Source: Oligoflexia bacterium (GTDB lineage Bacteria > Bdellovibrionota > Bdellovibrionia > Bdellovibrionales > Bdellovibrionaceae). Taken from it: a stretch of 64,000 nucleotides of DNA. The notes under the pieces are model-generated. The model did not search any database. It was not told where the DNA came from and worked only from the letters and a program-made list of their open reading frames with translations. Numbering within the stretch: the first letter of the stretch is position 1; each line of letters starts with the position of its first letter. This document shows positions 28,060-44,972 of this stretch, piece by piece. The stretch spans positions 146,177 to 210,176 of the forward strand of contig BOLD01000004.1 in assembly GCA_016861345.1 (NCBI GenBank), given 5' to 3'. Made by a program: the position numbers and the translations under genes.

Positions 28060-29751
28060 TCATTGAATACCCACTCCAAAACCCATAAAACGGACGACGG
28101 AGCGATGGTAGAGTGGTTGAATACACCAGTCTTGAAAACTGGAAGGCTCGCAAGGGCCTCGCGAGTTCGAATCTCGCTCGCTCCGCCAATTCTGATTTTC
28201 CTTCCAACCGGACAAACGAGCAAACGGACTTTTCAATTGATATTGAAGAGTTAGCCCATCAAGAGTTGGGTTCGAACATACCTTTTTCAAGTATTCGAGC
28301 CGCTCTTCTCGGTTCATTGAAATGTAGAGTTCTTTCGCGTTGATAGCCAGTTCGAACACTTTTTTGACCGATACCATCGCCTCGTCACTGATCGACAGCG
28401 TGAGGCGTTCGATTTCTGATTCATAGTGTTTGCGATCCTCACGAATGCGGTCAATCTGGCGTCGGTATCCAATTTCATCTAACAAGCCACGTTTGAAATC
28501 GTCATACGCGATGTCTTCTTTGCCTTCGAGTCCGCGAAGCTCAACGCGAAAGCCTTCCATTTGTTTTTTGATCGCAGCCTTTTGTTTGTCGTGTGTTTCG
28601 TTGAGAGCACTAGTGATGTCCTGGGCGAACTCCTCAGAAATGGAAAGCGCCGCGACTGCTGGCTCAAGCTGCGCCCATAGCTTATCTTCTGAGACATAGA
28701 CTTTTTTATCATGAATCTTGCGGGAATTTGAACAACGATAGAGATGATACACTTTCACTTCGCCGGTCGATTTCAAGGTCTTTTCCTTTCTCTCATAAGT
28801 GATTTGTCTGCGACATTCTGGATGGTCGCAGACTAACCAACCACGAAATACGTCATCGCCGTTCATTATCGTTTTGCGCTGGATGGACACGTTGCCATCG
28901 TTGATTGCTTTGACGGCCTTGAGGACTTTCGCAGGGATAATTAACTCGTGCTTGCCTTTGTAGTTTTTCGGATCGCCCGTCAGCTTGAATGAGCCCCAGT
29001 AAAACGAGTTCTTGAGTCGTTTCTCAACGGAAGTGCGATTGTAGGTTTTGATTTGGGCGGTGGGTACGAGGTTGTCTTCAAGGTTTTTCTGTCTAATTAC
29101 ATCGTATGAATGGCCCTGAGCGCGTAGCTCAAACTCACGCTGAACGAGTCGCACGTTTGCTGGGTTTGGGTCCACGATAACAGTAGCTGTTCCTTTGATG
29201 GCGTACCCCGACCTATCGACTTCCTTGTGATGGACGTAACCAAGTGGCGTGTGACGATAGGGGAACCAACCTTGTTCTGCCTTGGTTCGGAATGCGTTTC
29301 TTACTCTGGTTCCATTTTCACGGCTGTAGTTTTCATTGATGACACCGGTAATACCGCGCAAAAGCAGATCAGCATCCGACGAGTGTTTCGAGTATGCCTT
29401 CCCGTCCGCAACGTGGTGAACAATGATTTTATCCTGTCGAATTAAGTCGGTGTTCGCTGATAGGTCCTTTGGATTTCGGGCCTCACGACTCGCGTTGTAA
29501 AATAAAATGTGTTTTGCACCCAGCTTCTTTGCCTGTGCCATTAGCGCGTTATACTTGCTTCGCTTCTCAGAGTCATAAGCGGTTTCGATAATCTCCGCGG
29601 GCGTAATCACAAGCTCAAGGCCATGATCTTCCGCATACCTCGTGATCGCCGCGATTTGCGTTTCAGCCGAAGTATTGTCCTTCTGTCCCGCAGAACTTCT
29701 GCGAACAATCGCTACACATTTTTTGATGGGGTCTTCTTTCCACTTTTCCAT
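28060..29751 (-). CDS. Large serine recombinase (integrase)
   Basis: The N-terminal resolvase catalytic domain (VAIVRRSSAGQKD, catalytic Ser) is followed by a recombinase domain, a zinc ribbon (CDHPECRRQ...YRCSN) and a coiled-coil region. AGGAG lies 7 nt before the ATG at 29751. The last ~43 codons overlap tRNA-Ser and its upstream spacer in antisense. Confidence 0.9.
   Translation of the reverse strand: MEKWKEDPIKKCVAIVRRSSAGQKDNTSAETQIAAITRYAEDHGLELVITPAEIIETAYDSEKRSKYNALMAQAKKLGAKHILFYNASREARNPKDLSANTDLIRQDKIIVHHVADGKAYSKHSSDADLLLRGITGVINENYSRENGTRVRNAFRTKAEQGWFPYRHTPLGYVHHKEVDRSGYAIKGTATVIVDPNPANVRLVQREFELRAQGHSYDVIRQKNLEDNLVPTAQIKTYNRTSVEKRLKNSFYWGSFKLTGDPKNYKGKHELIIPAKVLKAVKAINDGNVSIQRKTIMNGDDVFRGWLVCDHPECRRQITYERKEKTLKSTGEVKVYHLYRCSNSRKIHDKKVYVSEDKLWAQLEPAVAALSISEEFAQDITSALNETHDKQKAAIKKQMEGFRVELRGLEGKEDIAYDDFKRGLLDEIGYRRQIDRIREDRKHYESEIERLTLSISDEAMVSVKKVFELAINAKELYISMNREERLEYLKKVCSNPTLDGLTLQYQLKSPFARLSGWKENQNWRSERDSNSRGPCEPSSFQDWCIQPLYHRSVVRFMGFGVGIQ
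28099..28188 (+). tRNA. tRNA-Ser (anticodon UGA), CCA encoded
   Basis: The cloverleaf was read by hand. The acceptor stem is GGAGCGA/TCGCTCC. The anticodon stem is CCAGT/ACTGG with loop CTTGAAA. The long variable arm is GGCTC-GCAA-GGGCC. The T arm is GCGAG-TTCGAAT-CTCGC, followed by discriminator G and CCA. Confidence 0.93.
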
Positions 29752-32432: not shown

Positions 32433-33914
32433 ATGGGACACGAGGGAAACGGACTAGAACATTTAGAAGCAGATTGGCTGTATTATAGCCATGACATATC
32501 AAATTTGTCGGCGATTCCTGGTTCAGACATTATTCCCGCACAACTGACTGTGAAGCGAAACGCTAATTTGACCGTGTCCTTGGAAATATCGGGCACCGAC
32601 AAATACCTGTTTCAAAAAGAACAAGCAAAACAAGTGCGAGTTGGGACCGTAAGCGCTAGTGGCTCCATGTCCGGCGAGGTCAAACACGCAGGCTATAAAG
32701 TTGAACTGATCGGCGTAACAGCGGGACGGAAGACTTCCAATTTTTCCGGTGAGTACACCATCCATGCTTCAGCAAGTTCCGTTCGCATTACTCGAAACGA
32801 ATTGGAGCCAAAAAGTGCAATTATATACGCGGTCGGTTGTCCGAAACTTCTTTTTCATCGGGGGACCTGTCGTGACGTGGAGCCTGGTAAAGTCACACTC
32901 AGCCGAAGGCACGTTGGGGACGCCGATCTGGGGTCAGTTGGCGAAATGTCATTTGATTCTTATGGAGAAAGTCGAAGTTCGGCGACAGACTACCTTTTGA
33001 TTAAGAACAAATATGGAACCGTGATCTTCTCTAAAGGCGAACCGTCGTCAGAAACGGAAGAATATTCCCCATGCTATTTACAGTTCATTGATGGAAATGG
33101 AGTCATTGATCGTGATTTTCGCCGAAGATACTTGGAAGCAGTAAGTTTTGCGCTTGGTAAAAGACTGATTGAAATCGGACACTCGACTTTTTCTGAGGAT
33201 CATCAGCCGATTTGCCAAGAATCTCGCACTCCATACTCACTAAATATCAAAAAGGAAGCCGCGATTTATCCACTTCCACCGGCAGAGAATGTTCTGCATG
33301 GCCAATTCCCCAGCGAAGAAGTCTTTTCTCAAATTGTTGATGGCTTCTTAGACAATTATGAATCCTTGGATCTATCGAATGTCATTTGGCCGTTGTGGAT
33401 CGCTCGGCTCATGCCGCTTGGTACGGAGCTTGTTTCATACTCATCATCTTTGGAATCTCTCGTGACGATGTGGTTTAAGAATAAAGAGCCGCAAAAAAAT
33501 GAATATGTTGATAGTGATTTGTTCAAGAGTATCGTCGCGTCCACACATGAGCAGGTATCAAAAGCGTCGATGACGGACGAACTCAAGGCAACTTTGAGTC
33601 GAAAGATTGAATTGGCAAATCACCTCAGTATTGGGGATAAGAAAAAGCGATTTTTTGAATCATTAGGGTTAGGATTCGGAAAAATCGAGAAGAAAACCAT
33701 CGCTTCGAGGAACAAATACGCGCATGGCGGCTCAGTCAAGGACGCAGACACCCGTGATCTGGTCATCCTCGCCCGTTGCTACGAAGCTCTAATAAATCGG
33801 GCGTTACTTGCCGCAATCGGTTCAAAAGGTAATTACGTGGATTACTCTTCGTATGACTTTCCTGAAAGAAACATCTCGGTCGAGATGGCTGGCACCAACT
33901 TTGATAAAAATTGA
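32433..33914 (+). CDS. HEPN-motif protein (candidate abortive-infection/defence RNase; possibly ApeA-like)
   Basis: The C-terminal helical region contains SRNKYAHGG (R426-x4-H431, nt 33708-33725), which fits the RNxxxH HEPN consensus. About 60 further helical residues follow. The N-terminal ~400 aa are beta-rich and unassigned. Confidence 0.6.
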   Translation: MGHEGNGLEHLEADWLYYSHDISNLSAIPGSDIIPAQLTVKRNANLTVSLEISGTDKYLFQKEQAKQVRVGTVSASGSMSGEVKHAGYKVELIGVTAGRKTSNFSGEYTIHASASSVRITRNELEPKSAIIYAVGCPKLLFHRGTCRDVEPGKVTLSRRHVGDADLGSVGEMSFDSYGESRSSATDYLLIKNKYGTVIFSKGEPSSETEEYSPCYLQFIDGNGVIDRDFRRRYLEAVSFALGKRLIEIGHSTFSEDHQPICQESRTPYSLNIKKEAAIYPLPPAENVLHGQFPSEEVFSQIVDGFLDNYESLDLSNVIWPLWIARLMPLGTELVSYSSSLESLVTMWFKNKEPQKNEYVDSDLFKSIVASTHEQVSKASMTDELKATLSRKIELANHLSIGDKKKRFFESLGLGFGKIEKKTIASRNKYAHGGSVKDADTRDLVILARCYEALINRALLAAIGSKGNYVDYSSYDFPERNISVEMAGTNFDKN

Positions 33915-38720: not shown

Positions 38721-39347
38721 TTAGCGCCTCCCTTTCAAAATCCTCTCAACGCTCGTTTTCCCAATTTCGAGTGTCCGGCTGATTTCGCGGATACTCTTTC
38801 CGTTGGCCCTGAGGGTCTTCACTTGTTCAACGGTCTCATCTGGCAGGGGCTTACGACCGCATGACCAACCAGTGTCAGCGGCGGTCATCTTTTTTACAGC
38901 GAGCGCGGTTTTGATTCGTTCGCTGATTAGACTTTTTTCGAGTTCGGCGATAGCGCCCAGAATTTGAGTCACGGCACGGCCAACCGGAGTCCCCAAATCA
39001 ATCGACTCACGCAAGGAAATTAAAGTGACCCCGTATCCGTCTAATTCGTGCAGTAGATTGAGCAAGAAGCGGGTATCTCTCGCCAAACGATCCAGAGCAA
39101 AAATAATGACGACCTTGAACTTGCCCATACGAGCATCCTTGACGAGTTGGTCAAGGGCCTTCCGGCGATCCGCTGAGCCAGTGATCCGGTCAACGTACTC
39201 GCCGACGAGCTGAAATTCACGGTTGGTCGCTACGCCACGGATCGGAACCAGTTGATGCTCTGGCTCTTGTTTCAGAAGTGTTGAAACACGGGCATAGGCG
39301 ACTGCCTTCACCTGGTTCACGCTGCCTCCTTGATAAGAAGGCGGCAT
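38721..39347 (-). CDS. Small serine recombinase (resolvase/invertase family)
   Basis: AVAYARVSTLLKQE (catalytic Ser), VIIFALDRLARD, and the C-terminal HTH GKSIREISRTLEIGKTSVERIL. Confidence 0.9.
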   Translation of the reverse strand: MPPSYQGGSVNQVKAVAYARVSTLLKQEPEHQLVPIRGVATNREFQLVGEYVDRITGSADRRKALDQLVKDARMGKFKVVIIFALDRLARDTRFLLNLLHELDGYGVTLISLRESIDLGTPVGRAVTQILGAIAELEKSLISERIKTALAVKKMTAADTGWSCGRKPLPDETVEQVKTLRANGKSIREISRTLEIGKTSVERILKGRR

Positions 39348-39676
39348 GTGATCGTGGGTTTGGTCTGGTTCAGCACCTTTTCAACGTATTCTGCTGAACT
39401 AAGTTCCGCGCATACAGACTTCCACGAAACATTAGTGCGACAGACGCTTTTTAGCACAACGGAGTGAATGGAGTCGACATCTGCGCCATCTTGGATGCGA
39501 GCCATGATTGAGTTTTCAAGTTCAACCAGTTCGGCTTCAGCAAGCTCCAAGCGCTTTTTCTGAGCGTCATGGCTTCGACGCAAGCGCAGGACCTTTTCGA
39601 CCTCTTGGTTTGTTACGGTTGCCCCTTTAAGGGCTAAGCTTCCTTGGGTTCTCATAGGACCTCCGTTGGTTGACAT
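39317..39676 (-). CDS. Hypothetical protein upstream of and overlapping the resolvase
   Basis: A 119-aa ORF with a coiled-coil-like centre (KKRLELAEAELVELENSIMARI). It overlaps the resolvase start by 31 nt. Confidence 0.5.
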   Translation of the reverse strand: MSTNGGPMRTQGSLALKGATVTNQEVEKVLRLRRSHDAQKKRLELAEAELVELENSIMARIQDGADVDSIHSVVLKSVCRTNVSWKSVCAELSSAEYVEKVLNQTKPTITCRLLIKEAA

Positions 39677-39700
39677 TACAAATACAGCTTAACGCAATGC

Positions 39701-39738
39701 GTATTAATAATCAATACTAGGGTATTGAAAATCAATAT
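39701..39738. promoter_or_regulatory. Operator-like array of four alternating GTATTGA-type half-sites in a divergent intergenic region
   Basis: The half-sites are GTATTA (39701), CAATAC (39712), GTATTG (39722) and CAATAT (39733), at ~10-11-bp spacing. The central TCAATAC-TAGG-GTATTGA (39711-39728) has perfect 7-bp arms. Confidence 0.6.
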
Positions 39739-39759
39739 AACTGCCGATAACGTATAGGA

Positions 39760-39966
39760 ATGAGTCAGCCCAAGTTTCGACATCCAAAAGAGATGAGCAG
39801 TCGCAAGGATCGTGTGGCGCTTTCAACCCGCGTCCTAGATAAAACCAAGAGGCTTTTAGAGAAGGCGGCGGAAAAGCATAAAATTTCTCTCTCCGAACTC
39901 TGTTCAAACGTGTTGGACGAGTATGCGGAATGGCTCGAAAAAGAAGATGAGCAAAAGAAGAGGTAG
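39760..39966 (+). CDS. Ribbon-helix-helix (CopG/MetJ-like) protein
   Basis: 68 aa. RVALSTRVLDKTKRLLEKAAEKHKISLSELCSNVLDEY fits the strand-helix-helix layout. The tail is acidic. Confidence 0.65.
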   Translation: MSQPKFRHPKEMSSRKDRVALSTRVLDKTKRLLEKAAEKHKISLSELCSNVLDEYAEWLEKEDEQKKR

Positions 39967-39975
39967 GAAGGCGCG

Positions 39976-40815
39976 ATGTTCAACTTATTGATGTTCAACG
40001 TAGATTGGCCTTCGGGCAGAGTCAAAATCCCGATAGCACGGATGTTTGAGTACACTGAGTCCGAAATAGCCAATTCATTTCGGAACGGAAGCGACCTCTT
40101 GCTTGATCGTCTAATTTCTTTGCCTTGTCTTTTCTGTGTTGAGGGTGTGGCGGACGAAGTAGCTTATGTCGGCCAGATCAATCGAGCACGTGTCGTCGGT
40201 AAAGAAGTATCTCTAGAAGTCAGCTTTGACACTGACATACCGCCTCTCCATAACCGTATGATTCACGCAAATCGCACTGGATTAGACATGCCAGAAGAAT
40301 TCGAGTTTTCGCGGAATCATTGGGCCGTGAAGGACGTGGACCTTTACCGCTTCTTACTCCGAAATGTGCGTCCCCGCCGCCAACGCCCTGTCGTGTTCCA
40401 AATCTCCGAACACGAGAATATCGAACCGACTCTCGTATCAGCAATGATGCCGTTTGATGCGAGTTTCAACGAAGTTTATACGGCTATTCGTGAAGCTACT
40501 GAAAATGTAGGGCTGAAATGTAGAAGAGCCGATGATATTTGGGAAAACCCAGCGATCATCCAAGATGTCGTTTCTCTTATCGACCGCTCCCGTGTCATCG
40601 TTTGCGACTGCACTGGTCGCAATCCGAACGTGTTTTATGAGGCTGGCATTGCGCATACCCTTGGACGGGAAGTAATCCTAATTACTCAGAGTGAGCACGA
40701 CATCCCGTTTGATTTACGTCATCTTCGCTATGTCCGCTATCTCAACAATGGCGAAGGACGACGTGTGCTTGTTGCCGCCCTCCAAAGTAGGATGCAAACG
40801 ATCCTCGGACACTGA
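39976..40815 (+). CDS. Two-domain protein: unknown N-terminal domain plus a nucleoside-2-deoxyribosyltransferase/TIR-like Rossmannoid C-terminal domain
   Basis: AGGAAGG SD, with the start 9 nt after the RHH stop. The C-terminal half is VSAMMPFDASFNEVYTAIREA...RADDI...IIQDVVSLIDRSRVIVCDCTGRNPNVFYEAGIAHTLGREVILI. It shows the ...D-x-T/S-G...N-x-x-x-E-x-G-x-A-x-x-x-G-K/R-x-V pattern with Glu222 (nt 40639-40641). Confidence 0.6.
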   Translation: MFNLLMFNVDWPSGRVKIPIARMFEYTESEIANSFRNGSDLLLDRLISLPCLFCVEGVADEVAYVGQINRARVVGKEVSLEVSFDTDIPPLHNRMIHANRTGLDMPEEFEFSRNHWAVKDVDLYRFLLRNVRPRRQRPVVFQISEHENIEPTLVSAMMPFDASFNEVYTAIREATENVGLKCRRADDIWENPAIIQDVVSLIDRSRVIVCDCTGRNPNVFYEAGIAHTLGREVILITQSEHDIPFDLRHLRYVRYLNNGEGRRVLVAALQSRMQTILGH

Positions 40816-40983
40816 ATCCGGCTAAATAGCCGCCGCTCTGACACTTTAGGCTACCGGAGTTGGGAACCGGCAAATTCGGAACTGGCTGGGAACAACCTTA
40901 CACCCATACATGCACGCGATCAGCGCCACTCAAAAAACTGAATGAACATCGGGAACGACAATCTTCTAGTTAACGGAGGTTGT

Positions 40984-41268
40984 ATGAATCTGGTTAGTTT
41001 CTTTTCTGAGCACGGTGATAATGATCTTTTCTTTCTGGCCCGAAATGAGCGAAAGCCTCGATTGCGGGACATTGTTATTGAGGCCATGCGTTTGCTCGCC
41101 CGTGGGCCGCTGACAAAGCTGGAGCTTCAAAAGCTCGTCAAAATTCGCCGCAAGACATTCATTCGTTTGCTGGCCGGTTTGGTCCAAGCCGGTGTTGTAA
41201 TTCGCACGGGAACCGGCAAGCGCCGCGATCCGTTTCGCTATATGTTGGCTGACCACTATCGCGGCTAA
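40984..41268 (+). CDS. Small winged-helix protein (paralogue of ORF 29780-30301)
   Basis: GGAGG lies 4 nt before the ATG at 40984. LTKLELQKLVKIRRKTFIRLLAGLVQAGVVIRTGTGKRRDPFRYML shares the RRK...G-x-GK-x-x-DPF-x-Y signature with the other ORF. Confidence 0.6.
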   Translation: MNLVSFFSEHGDNDLFFLARNERKPRLRDIVIEAMRLLARGPLTKLELQKLVKIRRKTFIRLLAGLVQAGVVIRTGTGKRRDPFRYMLADHYRG

Positions 41269-41401: not shown

Positions 41402-41462
41402 GGGAACATGAATCGTAGGTTGGAATCAGAAAATGCTCCGATTCCAGCAACTGGGGCATTTT
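41402..41462 (+). repeat. Left copy of an imperfect direct repeat flanking the ImmA cassette
   Basis: It shares the exact 12-mer GGGAACATGAAT (41402-41413) with 43354-43365. Co-linear blocks follow: TGGAA, AGAAAAT, CTCCG, CCAGC, GCATTTT. Confidence 0.7.
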
Positions 41463-42555
41463 ACATCAAAGATAATTGCTCAGGGCTATTGGAGTCAGGA
41501 CTCAATATCAGAAGATCTTTAAGAGATTCAAAATCCTGTAGGTTAAGTCCTAAGTTTTCCGAACATTCTTTTCCAGACAATTCGTTCAAGCAGTTTTCTA
41601 TGATCTTAGGGGGATCGAAAGAAGGCTCTTCGGGCTCATTGCCTCTGTAAGCGTTAAGCAAAATGTTTGCGCGTCGATATGTCGGCTCAGACATGCAGTT
41701 AAGATCGAAAGCCCTTCGAATAAGTGCTGCTAAAGAAACTCCCCAACGTCGCTTCAGTCCGATGTAAGCATCCATGTTAAAGCGCCGAGGACATTCAGCC
41801 AGAAAAGCTTCTCTTGGTAACAGGAATGCGCTCGCAAATCTGTTTGCCTGTCTTTCTAATTCAAAGTCTCCCGCCGTAACATCATGGTGCATGAATAGGT
41901 GGCCAAGCTCGTGAGAGGCATCGAACTTAATTCTGGATGTTGAAGTCTTCGGAACCAGAAAAATTAAAGGTCTGCTTCCGTTCCAGACGGAAAAAGCGTC
42001 TACGCCCTTACAGTCCTCTGGAATGAATGAAACAAGGATGCCTTTGCTCTCCAAAACCTTCATCAGGTTTGGAATCGGACCGAGTCCCATATTCCACGAG
42101 CTTCTCACTCTGCCAGCTAGGCGCTCAATATCTTCATCGCTTCGCACCGTGGAAGGTTGAATAGAGCTAACTTGCTCCGCAGGTAAATCAAACTCTTCTT
42201 CAATCTGATTTATAAGCTCACATTGTATGGTGCCGAGAGCGAGAATTTTACGACGTTCTCTTTGGCTCGTACTTCTTAGACTTCTGAAATGACAAGCCTC
42301 TAAACGAATCACAGATGTCTGCAAAGGCTTACTGAAAAACGCCGGTTTAATACCCAAAGCAAGACTCATGTGCGCAATTGTCTTCGCATCAGGTCTGATG
42401 GTTTTATCTTCGAACTGAGTGATCGAACTGGGGGTCTTCCCAATTTTCTCCGCCAACTCAGCTTTAGTCATACCTCTCATCTCTCTCGCCAATGTTAAGC
42501 GAGTAGATACAAAGTTCTGCGAGATTAGAGATAAATCGAAATGGTTCATACTCAT
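41461..42555 (-). CDS. XRE-HTH / ImmA-IrrE (COG2856) zinc-metallopeptidase fusion protein
   Basis: The N-terminal HTH is LAREMRGMTKAELAEKIGKTPSSITQFEDKTIRP. The central HELGHLFMH is an HExxH motif in the context typical of ImmA/IrrE peptidases. Confidence 0.85.
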   Translation of the reverse strand: MSMNHFDLSLISQNFVSTRLTLAREMRGMTKAELAEKIGKTPSSITQFEDKTIRPDAKTIAHMSLALGIKPAFFSKPLQTSVIRLEACHFRSLRSTSQRERRKILALGTIQCELINQIEEEFDLPAEQVSSIQPSTVRSDEDIERLAGRVRSSWNMGLGPIPNLMKVLESKGILVSFIPEDCKGVDAFSVWNGSRPLIFLVPKTSTSRIKFDASHELGHLFMHHDVTAGDFELERQANRFASAFLLPREAFLAECPRRFNMDAYIGLKRRWGVSLAALIRRAFDLNCMSEPTYRRANILLNAYRGNEPEEPSFDPPKIIENCLNELSGKECSENLGLNLQDFESLKDLLILSPDSNSPEQLSLM

Positions 42556-43232
42556 AGAGTTTCAATCTTAGACTTGTCTTTCTTACGAGTCACCACAAAG
42601 TCAGGAACTTCAACTTCAGGATGCAGTTGTGCTGCTGTATCAGTGGCAAATCCGTCGGCCATAGTTTTCATATAAATCTGATGTGTGCGTTTCCATGATG
42701 AAATTCTACCGTTACTCACTTCGCCAGGAGCACACAGATACACGGCTTCAAGACCCGTTTCAGGATTTCCCAAATGAGCAATAACCCAATTCTTGATAAA
42801 TTCTTGCTCTTGATCTTCTGAATCGAAAATGGACTTACCAGTTTCAACATCTATCAGAAACGGTGTGTTGTTCTCTTCGGCCAACTTGGGAGCAGTGTTG
42901 GAATTGTGAGGGAAGCAACGTGAAATATCTTGAGACGCAAACTTGCCCACCCTGTAAGACGCGAATACGCGATTGTTGATGTGCATTCGAAATGTGAGAC
43001 CGTCGTAAATTTTTACGTCTTGATCCTCAACGTGCACGTTGTCTGCAAAAGACTCTTTATAGTTTTTCTTGGTGTAGAAATGGACGCCGTAACCGAAAAT
43101 GTTGGAGTTATCTCCGTCCTCTTCGTCGTATTTGCTTTGCGCTGTTAAATACGACTTTTGAAGTGCGGCAATAATAGCCGCTTGCTGATGTTCAGTGATA
43201 AGATCGTCCGGGACCTGATTGTTAGCAGACAC
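42552..43232 (-). CDS. Hypothetical protein translationally coupled to the HTH-ImmA gene
   Basis: A GTG start lies 4-5 nt after AGGAGG. The stop overlaps the downstream start (ATGA). The product is 226 aa with no motif I can name. Confidence 0.65.
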   Translation of the reverse strand: MSANNQVPDDLITEHQQAAIIAALQKSYLTAQSKYDEEDGDNSNIFGYGVHFYTKKNYKESFADNVHVEDQDVKIYDGLTFRMHINNRVFASYRVGKFASQDISRCFPHNSNTAPKLAEENNTPFLIDVETGKSIFDSEDQEQEFIKNWVIAHLGNPETGLEAVYLCAPGEVSNGRISSWKRTHQIYMKTMADGFATDTAAQLHPEVEVPDFVVTRKKDKSKIETL

Positions 43233-43580: not shown

Positions 43581-44972
43581 ATGGCAAAAACACGTACAGA
43601 ATCAGATACCTTTGGTGAAATCGCAGTTCCTTCTGAATATTATTGGGGCGCTCAAACGCAAAGATCCCTTATAAACTTTGCAGTTGGAACTGATTTGATG
43701 CCCCTTCCGCTTATTCGCGCCTTTGGGCATTTAAAAAAATCAGCGGCTATTGTGAATTGTGATTTAGGCCGATTGCCTCAAGATCTTTGTCAGCCAATTG
43801 TTCAGGCCTGTGATGAAATAATATCTGGAAAATTAGATCAGAACTTTCCTTTAGTTGTTTGGCAGACCGGCTCCGGAACGCAAACCAACATGAATGTGAA
43901 CGAGGTTATCTCAAATCGTGCGATCGAGATTTTGGGTGGAGTGATGGGATCAAAAAATCCAGTACATCCGAATGATCATGTGAACATGGGACAAAGCTCA
44001 AATGATTCATTTCCAACAGCCATGCATATTGCGGCTGTGATTGAAATCGAAGATTTACTCCTACCGGCCCTCAAGAGACTGCACACAGAATTAAAAAATA
44101 AAGAAAATGTGTTTTCAAAAATAATCAAAGTCGGTCGGACACATCTAATGGACGCAACGCCATTGACGTTGGGTCAGGAATTTTCTGGCTATCGAATGCA
44201 GGTTGAATTGGGAATTGAGAGAGTGGAGCAAACATTAGCCCGGCTAAAAAACCTTGCCCAAGGGGGAACTGCCGTTGGAACAGGACTTAACACACACCCT
44301 GAATTTGCGGATAGAGTGGCGAAAAAAATCAGCGAATTGACAGGAAAGAAATTTATTTCCGCTCCGAATAAATTTGAGGCCCTGGCTTCGCATGACGCGC
44401 TCGTTTTTGCTCACGGCGCTTTGAAAACTTTGGCTGCAAGTCTCATGAAGATCGCGAATGATATTCGCTGGCTGGGCAGTGGGCCGAGATGTGGGATTCA
44501 AGAGTTAATTCTTCCAGAAAATGAACCGGGCTCATCAATCATGCCTGGAAAGGTCAATCCAACTCAGAGCGAGTCGATGACAATGGTCTGTTGCCAAGTT
44601 TTTGGAAATGATGTTGCCATTAATATGGGTGGTGCAAACGGAAATTTTGAGCTGAATGTTTTTAAGCCGCTGATCATCTTTAATTTTTTACACTCAGTCA
44701 GATTGCTTACAGATAGTGTGAATGGCTTTGTTGACCACTGTCTTCTTGGCCTGAAAGCGAATGAAAAAAATATTGCGAAAAATTTAGATCAAACATTAAT
44801 GCTTGTCACTGCTTTAGCTCCGCATATCGGCTATGATAAGGCCGCAAAAATTGCAAAAAAAGCTCATGCTGACGGTACAAGCTTACTTGAAGCGGGGCTA
44901 CAGCTTGGCTTTGTCACAGAGACTCAGTTTAAGACTTGGGTTAAGCCAGAGGACATGCTTTCCCCATCTTAA
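43581..44972 (+). CDS. fumC: Class II fumarate hydratase
   Basis: Signature [13 protein letters not shown]. The 463 aa have fumarase/aspartase-family layout. Confidence 0.96.

Follow-up and report, generated by a model that had tools for sequence, protein, structure and literature searches.

A stretch of 64,000 nucleotides (nt) from an Oligoflexia bacterium of the Bdellovibrionaceae (contig BOLD01000004.1, positions 146,177 to 210,176 of the forward strand; hereafter the window) contains a gene for a two-domain protein of 279 amino acids (aa), preceded closely by a gene for a 68-aa protein resembling ribbon-helix-helix (RHH) proteins. The 279-aa protein is probably a self-contained, single-chain sensor–effector of the abortive-infection type, in which a C-terminal domain related to nucleoside 2-deoxyribosyltransferases (NDT) and to DNPH1 would act under the control of the N-terminal domain. 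Its gene is inherited as a stand-alone, single-gene, horizontally spread unit. For the 68-aa gene, the simplest reading of the sequence comparisons is that it belongs to the backbone of the surrounding element and leads a cargo slot, and that it is not a dedicated antitoxin of the 279-aa protein.

The two genes and their products

The coding regions and the two domains are the following.

39760..39966, + strand: RHH-like gene, 68 aa, ATG start (open reading frame list and sequence)
39976..40815, + strand: gene of the 279-aa two-domain protein, ATG start; 100% identical to 'hypothetical protein BroJett040_10210' of Oligoflexia bacterium
39976..40380, + strand: N-terminal domain, aa 1–135 (AlphaFold2 model and alignment); proposed sensor or regulatory module
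40423..40815, + strand: C-terminal NDT/DNPH1-like (TIR-related) domain, aa ~150–279 and stop codon (Foldseek, Pfam in relatives, Glu conservation)

Both open reading frames (ORFs) are genuine genes. Every relative of the RHH protein begins with MSQPKF and every relative of the 279-aa protein with MFNLL, which supports the start codons chosen, and a Shine–Dalgarno-like run, AGGAAGG, lies ahead of the ATG of the 279-aa gene. The two genes are on the same strand with a gap of 9 nt (39967–39975), the layout given in the original prediction, whose coordinates and quoted peptides were all found. The 279-aa protein is under purifying selection, with a ratio of nonsynonymous to synonymous substitution rates (dN/dS) of ~0.05–0.07 against its closest relatives; against all others dS is saturated.

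The C-terminal domain and its conserved glutamate

The AlphaFold2 model of the 279-aa protein, computed from an alignment of 58 diverse relatives, has a mean predicted local distance difference test (pLDDT) score of 95.2 and matches the flavodoxin-like three-layer α/β fold of solved NDT and DNPH1 structures. In a Foldseek search of the PDB, the top matches are NDTs (8qc0, E 6.6e-5, TM score 0.65 on the target), followed by human and rat DNPH1/Rcl (TM 0.65–0.72). The TIR folds come below these (SPARTA TIR-APAZ, 1e-3; MAL, 1.1e-3; SARM1, 1.2e-3; RUN1, 1.7e-3). The same ranking of folds was obtained with an earlier, weaker model. Among viral structure models, the best matches are a cytidine monophosphate (CMP)/hydroxymethyl-CMP hydrolase (3.7e-8) and then the CAP12/Pycsar TIR (8e-6). 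On these comparisons of a predicted model, the nearest branch of the C-terminal domain is NDT/DNPH1, with TIR next.

At the level of profiles, the Pfam model PF05014 matches 38 of the 58 diverse full-length relatives at E ≤ 0.05 (best 1.3e-5), and its gathering score (28.8 bits) is exceeded by two relatives of the C-terminal domain with another architecture (P0250, 35.6 bits; P0197, 30.7 bits). The hidden Markov models of TIR_2, SEFIR, ThsB_TIR and DUF4062 match none of the 58 members and that of CAP12-PCTIR_TIR only one (at 0.017).

Residue conservation was assessed on 150 representatives clustered at 50% identity. Glu222 (codon 222, GAG, 40639–40641; in NVFYEAGIAHTLGREVILI / NVFYEAGIAHTLG) is retained in 139 of the 140 aligned representatives and D211 in all 142, with N216, N218, V219 and Y221 near-invariant in the same set. 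A search of PDB sequences with the family profile aligns YE222AG on the GYELG of Rcl/DNPH1, with an E-value of only 0.14. In NDT enzymes the nucleophile is a Glu (Porter et al. 1995, as reported in a passage of PMC3710099), and Glu222 is, from its conservation, the predicted nucleophile of the 279-aa protein. Together, the Foldseek matches, the PF05014 matches in relatives and the conservation of Glu222 uphold the assignment of the C-terminal half to the Rossmannoid NDT/TIR assemblage and the conserved Glu, both proposed earlier from the sequence of the window.

The C-terminal domain is not tied to one partner. Elsewhere it is fused to AbiJ_NTD5, PP2C/SpoIIE, CHAT, REC, EAD7 and PMT_2; AbiJ_NTD5 is seen only in paralogues in which it replaces the N-terminal domain of the 279-aa protein itself. 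Relatives of the C-terminal domain are also encoded by temperate phages of Staphylococcus and Streptococcus (records H31–H45), where they are annotated as hypothetical (31–38% identity over ~90 residues; phrog_3634 at 1.8e-18). In the Streptococcus prophages they lie 3.5–5 kb from one end of the record.

The N-terminal domain

In the AlphaFold2 model the N-terminal domain is an α+β domain with six strands and several helices. R22, E56 and W116 are invariant, and P50 and H115 nearly so. Searches of Pfam, NCBIfam and PADLOC with the window protein, and of Pfam with the 58 relatives, gave no match to this domain, and the models AbiJ_NTD1 to AbiJ_NTD5 match it neither in the window protein nor in any of the 58. 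Its only match is a weak one to PHROG 4962. Two hits in PDB sequences, to PdxS (E 1.4, profile search) and to Taf14 (E 1.3, single-sequence search), were set aside as chance matches. The original prediction could name nothing for this region, and the Pfam, NCBIfam and PDB-sequence searches likewise gave no named family. Since none of the five AbiJ_NTD models matches, it would be an additional, undescribed N-terminal domain.

The same domain is found in front of other effectors. In a 298-aa protein of E. coli F-type plasmids it precedes a SEFIR/TIR_2 domain, and the C-terminal part matches the PADLOC model bSEFIR at 7e-62. In a protein of Paraburkholderia pBPHY02 it precedes an FRG domain, the C-terminal part matching PADLOC PDC-S15 at 3e-100. 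Further partners are a CAP12-type TIR, TIR_2 and Abi_C (HEPN), and the domain also occurs alone in proteins of 137–140 aa. Homology searching with this domain as taken from the SEFIR and FRG proteins gave only proteins of at most 236 aa, many of them truncated, and shows the diversity of partners, not their counts. In the diverse set, mean pairwise identity is 30% for the N-terminal domain versus 48% for the C-terminal one, the N-terminal domain thus evolving faster. From these sequence comparisons, the N-terminal domain appears as a swappable, undescribed module with at least five types of effector partner.

Distribution and transfer of the 279-aa family

The family is large and its distribution patchy. 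There are 5,096 database matches at E ≤ 1e-3 (clusters at 90% identity), and a homologue is present in 566 of 185,579 species genomes (one genome per species). Every named member is annotated 'hypothetical protein', and literature searches found no paper describing the family or its N-terminal domain. Eighty species loci were examined, from Alpha-, Beta- and Gammaproteobacteria, Chlorobi, Verrucomicrobia, Acidobacteria, Mycobacterium and others.

When the neighbours in these loci (four genes on each side) were clustered, no cluster occurred in more than 9 of the 80, the largest being integrases (9) and ThsB_TIR-like genes (8). Inspection of the 80 loci revealed no recurrent small upstream gene or antitoxin-like partner; the short upstream ORFs are mostly spurious high-GC ORFs or pieces of unrelated toxin–antitoxin (TA) genes, such as a YoeB-like ORF in L031 or an XRE HTH in L024 and L025. 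In annotated plasmids the homologues are solitary genes. Nucleotide homology between loci ends at the borders of the ORF, except in near-identical elements common to different genera. Transport as an integron cassette or a structure like a miniature inverted-repeat transposable element was considered and rejected, as there is no flanking repeat in common and homology just stops at the ORF ends.

Gene and flanks can be 100% or 99.9% identical across genera, as between Agrobacterium, Bosea and a Hyphomicrobiales metagenome-assembled genome (MAG) (L028–L030, 100%) and between a Caulobacteraceae MAG and Maritimibacter (L004, L005). A Rhodocyclaceae MAG (L010) and Pseudomonas aeruginosa (L092) share 91.6% identity. 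In several loci the GC content of the gene is well under that of the locus (in L012, 0.50 versus 0.68). Identity across genera and low gene GC point to recent horizontal transfer. The neighbourhoods include integrases, tRNA-adjacent sites, plasmid par/rep/recombinase modules, restriction–modification genes, AbiE, SLATT/ThsB-TIR and SIR2.

In P. aeruginosa, Rhodocyclaceae and a metagenomic lineage (L092, 5873–6843; L097, 5877–6840; L009; L010), a homologue begins 34–38 nt past a tRNA-Ser(UGA), the distance being 38 nt in P. aeruginosa and Rhodocyclaceae; the P. aeruginosa copy is at the edge of a P4-like element (DUF3987, DUF5681, HTH_17). Adjacency to tRNA-Ser was rejected as a general rule, since, apart from the P. 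aeruginosa and P0082 contexts, just 2 of the 79 species loci show it.

The RHH-like gene and the cargo slot

Around the gene pair, the following features make up the backbone of the element.

38721..39347, − strand: small serine resolvase/invertase, 208 aa (Pfam Resolvase, 4.9e-34, and HTH_7)
39317..39676, − strand: 119-aa protein, upstream of the resolvase; no family match
39686..39759, no strand: conserved non-coding block before the RHH gene, with two 16-nt repeats; candidate operator and/or promoter
40942..41268, + strand: 108-aa winged-helix-like protein on the far side of the slot; weak winged helix–turn–helix (wHTH) matches

All matches of the window 68-aa protein are to RHH-type families and all are sub-threshold: NikA-like (0.006), DUF6290, TacA1, NCBIfam RelB (0.005), a PHROG Arc-like repressor (0.0019) and CopG in the PDB (0.39). 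The NikA-like model matches 6 of the 9 family members tested (best 0.0013), again below threshold. Because every match stays below threshold, the RHH label of the original prediction is plausible but unproven. The family is small, with 10 members in 5.8 billion proteins (the window protein and nine close relatives), and in the contigs that carry it the RHH gene is divergent to the small serine resolvase and a ~110-aa gene.

What follows the RHH gene varies. Among eight RHH loci, the window included, the 279-aa gene is directly downstream in two and comes after two inserted genes in one; in the other five the next gene is unrelated or there is none on the same strand.

Window and L084: 279-aa gene
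L086, 223–3597: a 385-aa gene and a SIR2 gene, only then the 279-aa gene
L087 and L088: 208-aa protein (L087, 4001–4839)
L091, 4001–5482: 423-aa protein
L090, 2570–3682: two small genes (72 aa among the genes that follow RHH)
L089: none on the same strand

In L085, a different RHH-like gene of 64 aa occupies the position of the RHH gene. The resolvase is conserved together with RHH in L085, L087, L089 and L091, and homologues of the 119-aa protein are found in L087 (73%) and L091, with a fragment in L084. The 108-aa wHTH gene has an 87%-identical copy in L090, past the RHH gene and the two unrelated small genes. The RHH gene is kept with the resolvase and the upstream block while the following gene varies, which makes the 279-aa gene a cargo between RHH and wHTH.

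The non-coding block is kept in the eight loci (window, L084, L086–L091) and is more conserved than the adjacent coding sequence. Its 16-nt repeats (39701–39716 and 39722–39737) are 21 nt apart from start to start; GTATTGAAAATCAAT (~15 nt) is invariant in the eight loci and GATAA-GTA nearly so. Promoter and terminator scans gave a number of sites no higher than chance. Judging from its conservation, the block could be an operator for the RHH protein or a site for the resolvase. The RHH protein is probably a DNA-binding regulator that would act on the repeats upstream of its own gene and control whatever cargo follows.

In this resolvase element of Bdellovibrionota, the interval from RHH to wHTH acts as a hotspot for cargo and could be mined for further candidate defence genes, among them the pair of the 385-aa and SIR2 genes and the genes of the 208-aa and 423-aa proteins. 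In this case, the short gap between a small DNA-binding gene and the gene behind it was not the mark of a TA pair.

Proposed mechanism and alternatives

If the 279-aa protein is a sensor–effector, its N-terminal domain (aa 1–135) would be a swappable module for recognition or regulation that keeps the C-terminal NDT-like domain inactive, and the trigger would most likely be a component of a phage or of another mobile element. Once freed, the C-terminal domain would break a nucleotide's N-glycosidic bond by means of Glu222, and depletion of an essential metabolite would stop the growth of the phage or of the host cell (growth arrest or abortive infection). Nicotinamide adenine dinucleotide (NAD+) is the leading candidate substrate because of two precedents discussed below, the NDT-like effector of Retron-Eco1 and Swarozyc. 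The closer structural match to DNPH1 and to CMP hydrolases makes hydrolysis of a (deoxy)nucleoside monophosphate, (d)NMP, or of a nucleoside triphosphate (NTP) the alternative. The wide and solitary distribution of the gene argues against constitutive toxicity and fits built-in control rather than an antitoxin.

Several observations weigh against this reading. The window protein itself is below threshold with every Pfam and NCBIfam model, PF05014 giving no match at E ≤ 0.1, and its sole PADLOC match is a partial one (74 residues, 9.4e-9) to the model 'Effector, TIR'. With the whole 279-aa model, the Foldseek lists were filled by matches to the C-terminal domain and no structural relative of the N-terminal domain surfaced. 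A consensus promoter scan flagged no promoter at 39686..39759. Some copies sit beside plasmid par/rep modules, and in L097–L102 the homologue is a lone insertion among housekeeping genes, beside serS and tRNA-Ser. Finally, sequence identity across phyla reaches 76–86% with saturated dS, a constraint unusually strong for an immune sensor, which may point to a non-standard cue. A bolder version, which we regard as unlikely, is that the family would be a widespread, unrecognised single-gene immune system whose N-terminal domain, a novel type of sensor, is also used by SEFIR, TIR, FRG and HEPN effectors. Given the strong conservation, this sensor would respond to a conserved cue, for instance one derived from the host or a nucleotide signal, rather than to a phage protein that evolves fast. 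The NDT-like domain would then attack a substrate other than NAD+, such as dNMPs, dNTPs or bases in nucleic acid.

A type II TA system or two-gene defence pair, with the RHH protein as antitoxin or dedicated regulator of an NDT/TIR-like toxin, was the original prediction and deserves hardly any credence now. In its favour, the gap between the two same-strand genes is just 9 nt, the 68-aa protein is weakly similar to the RelB, TacA, DUF6290 and Arc/CopG families, the pair is preserved in the closest relative (L084), and a different RHH-like gene takes the corresponding place in L085. Yet a tblastn search found the RHH gene near the 279-aa homologue in none of the 80 species loci, there is no conserved small upstream gene, and the plasmid copies are solitary; the enzyme family comprises more than 5,000 members and the RHH family just 10, which travel with the resolvase backbone and are followed by unrelated genes (of 208 aa, 423 aa, 72 aa, or 385 aa with SIR2) or by none on the same strand. 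In addition, only ~9 residues follow the predicted second RHH helix, which by alignment leaves no obvious tail for binding a toxin. The TA reading is thus, at the level of comparative sequence data, largely refuted. Linkage to RHH genes is not seen in these loci, but the mobile context that the original prediction expected is there: the homologues are clearly mobile, and the window gene itself sits in a mobile island with defence-type genes.

Another view gives the 279-aa protein a role in housekeeping or salvage rather than in conflict: as a nucleotide N-hydrolase or transferase of the DNPH1 or NDT type, regulated through its N-terminal domain, it would clear aberrant nucleotides. Strong purifying selection with high sequence conservation, NDT and DNPH1 as best structural matches, and copies among housekeeping genes by serS and tRNA-Ser all speak for it. 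The patchy occurrence (566 of 185,579 genomes), the identical copies across genera, the gene GC often well below that of the locus and the many integrase, plasmid or satellite contexts speak against it, as do the domain combinations: the N-terminal domain also fronts SEFIR/TIR, FRG and Abi_C, and the C-terminal domain also follows AbiJ_NTD5, CHAT and EAD7. We consider a housekeeping role very unlikely. Slightly better placed, although still quite unlikely, is a maker or degrader of signals acting in trans, either a ThsB-like producer of a second messenger or an anti-defence enzyme of mobile elements that would destroy immune signalling nucleotides. TIR- and NDT-fold enzymes are able to make or break signals derived from ADP-ribose (for Thoeris, PMC11204291), the gene travels on plasmids and integrative elements, and at least four diverged contexts have SLATT and ThsB_TIR-like genes immediately upstream in the same orientation. 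However, no partner is conserved across the family, there is no consistent link to signal-receptor domains such as SLOG, SAVED, CARF or Macro, and the N-terminal domain is otherwise joined to terminal effector-type domains (SEFIR, FRG, HEPN).

Comparison with known systems

For the single-chain sensor–effector that we favour, the closest parallel in layout is a set of proteins in which AbiJ-NTD1 to AbiJ-NTD5 are fused to HEPN, TIR, REase, kinase or NDT domains and which were read as sensor plus toxin (Anantharaman et al. 2013; PMC3710099). Here, as there, toxin-type C-terminal domains of different kinds are joined to one swappable, non-catalytic N-terminal domain, and the C-terminal domain of the 279-aa family also follows AbiJ_NTD5 in a paralogue adjoining a homologue. 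The N-terminal domain of the 279-aa protein is, in contrast, not among AbiJ_NTD1–5, and the proteins of 2013 are themselves computational predictions.

Swarozyc combines a DUF4062 TIR-like NADase with an auxiliary domain, is activated by the phage portal protein and acts by NAD+ depletion and abortive infection (bioRxiv 10.64898/2026.05.01.722283). Common to both are a single gene, a domain of the TIR/NDT superfamily, a catalytic Glu (predicted in the 279-aa protein), an auxiliary domain and occurrence in defence islands. The two differ in that no DUF4062 match appeared in 58 members of the 279-aa family, in the order of the domains, which is reversed (the auxiliary domain is N-terminal here), and in the auxiliary domains, which are unrelated.

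The NDT-like effector of Retron-Eco1 defends by NAD+ hydrolysis, according to a passage of PMC12405507 that cites Carabias 2024; Retron-Eco1 (Ec86) corresponds to the type II-A retrons in the classification of PMC7736814. An NDT-like effector domain is common to both, used in defence there and proposed for such a use in the 279-aa protein. However, no reverse transcriptase (RT) and no msr/msd is found near the 279-aa gene, and its product matched no PADLOC model with a retron NDT effector label. In the retron, RT-msDNA restrains an effector that has a DNA-binding domain at its C terminus, whereas the 279-aa protein has its fused N-terminal domain.

Among metabolic enzymes, NDT, DNPH1 (Rcl) and the CMP hydrolases MilB and BcmB are the best structural matches and have the Glu in the same Y-E-x-G motif, but identity is 12–17% and the 279-aa protein falls below the PF05014 threshold. 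Unlike these enzymes, the 279-aa protein has an extra N-terminal domain, and its contexts are those of mobility and conflict rather than metabolism.

With respect to the N-terminal domain, the relevant systems are bSEFIR and PDC-S15 (FRG). bSEFIR is reported to be a single-gene SEFIR defence (Millman et al. 2022). Some proteins of these two kinds (those of the E. coli F plasmids and of pBPHY02) carry the N-terminal domain of the 279-aa protein. They differ in their effector domains, and the PADLOC models match their C-terminal parts only, not the common N-terminal domain.

The kind of system is therefore known, from the prediction of 2013 and from validated analogues in other families, while the 279-aa family and its N-terminal domain are unnamed and absent from Pfam and NCBIfam. 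If the protein is indeed a sensor–effector, the range of bacterial defences would gain a single-gene system from a large unannotated family. That system would be a second stand-alone effector of the NDT/TIR superfamily alongside Swarozyc and the retron effectors, and it would bring a new N-terminal domain common to at least five effector types. Because the domain is common to so many effectors, one trigger found would inform several candidates, including the bSEFIR-like and PDC-S15-like ones.

The island and other genomic contexts

The gene pair lies in an island of ~15 kb that extends from tRNA-Ser(UGA) to ~43.3 kb and ends before a fumarase gene at 43581. Its other features are the following.

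28060..29751, − strand: large serine recombinase; marks the likely left end of the island
28099–28188: tRNA-Ser(UGA), next to the recombinase; the island also adjoins serS
32433–33914: Apea-like HEPN protein
41461–42555, − strand: RmrA (HTH and M78 peptidase) of a RosmerTA-like pair (PADLOC RmrA, 1.7e-88; Pfam Peptidase_M78 and HTH_3)
42552–43232, − strand: 226-aa candidate toxin upstream of RmrA, with a 4-nt overlap; no family match

A search for an att repeat found none, as the exact 14-mers surrounding tRNA-Ser occur nowhere else in the window. Most genes of the island have no family match, and PADLOC gave nothing on nine other island genes and the resolvase. The 226-aa gene is possibly a new variant of the RmrT toxin.

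Elsewhere, a homologue is directly preceded, in the same orientation, by a SLATT gene (SLATT_3 and SLATT_1), a 164-aa ThsB_TIR-like gene or both, at ~1–2 kb upstream (L004–L006, L028–L030, L066, L037, L047); this arrangement exists in at least four diverged versions. Such a neighbourhood could reflect a functional linkage or merely a common island. In five loci, a TIR–TGT fusion (467 aa) and an Ogg-HhH glycosylase (235 aa) are found downstream of the homologue.

On the Sphingorhabdus plasmid NZ_CP022549 (L002, 3062–7621), a full-length homologue comes directly after the genes of a Dcm methylase, Vsr and a type II restriction enzyme, and behind it lies a paralogue with AbiJ_NTD5 in front of the same C-terminal domain. 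On the 27-kb Arsenophonus plasmid NZ_CP123503 (L104), the homologue is present twice under one protein accession, each time near an HU gene, which suggests a duplicated segment.

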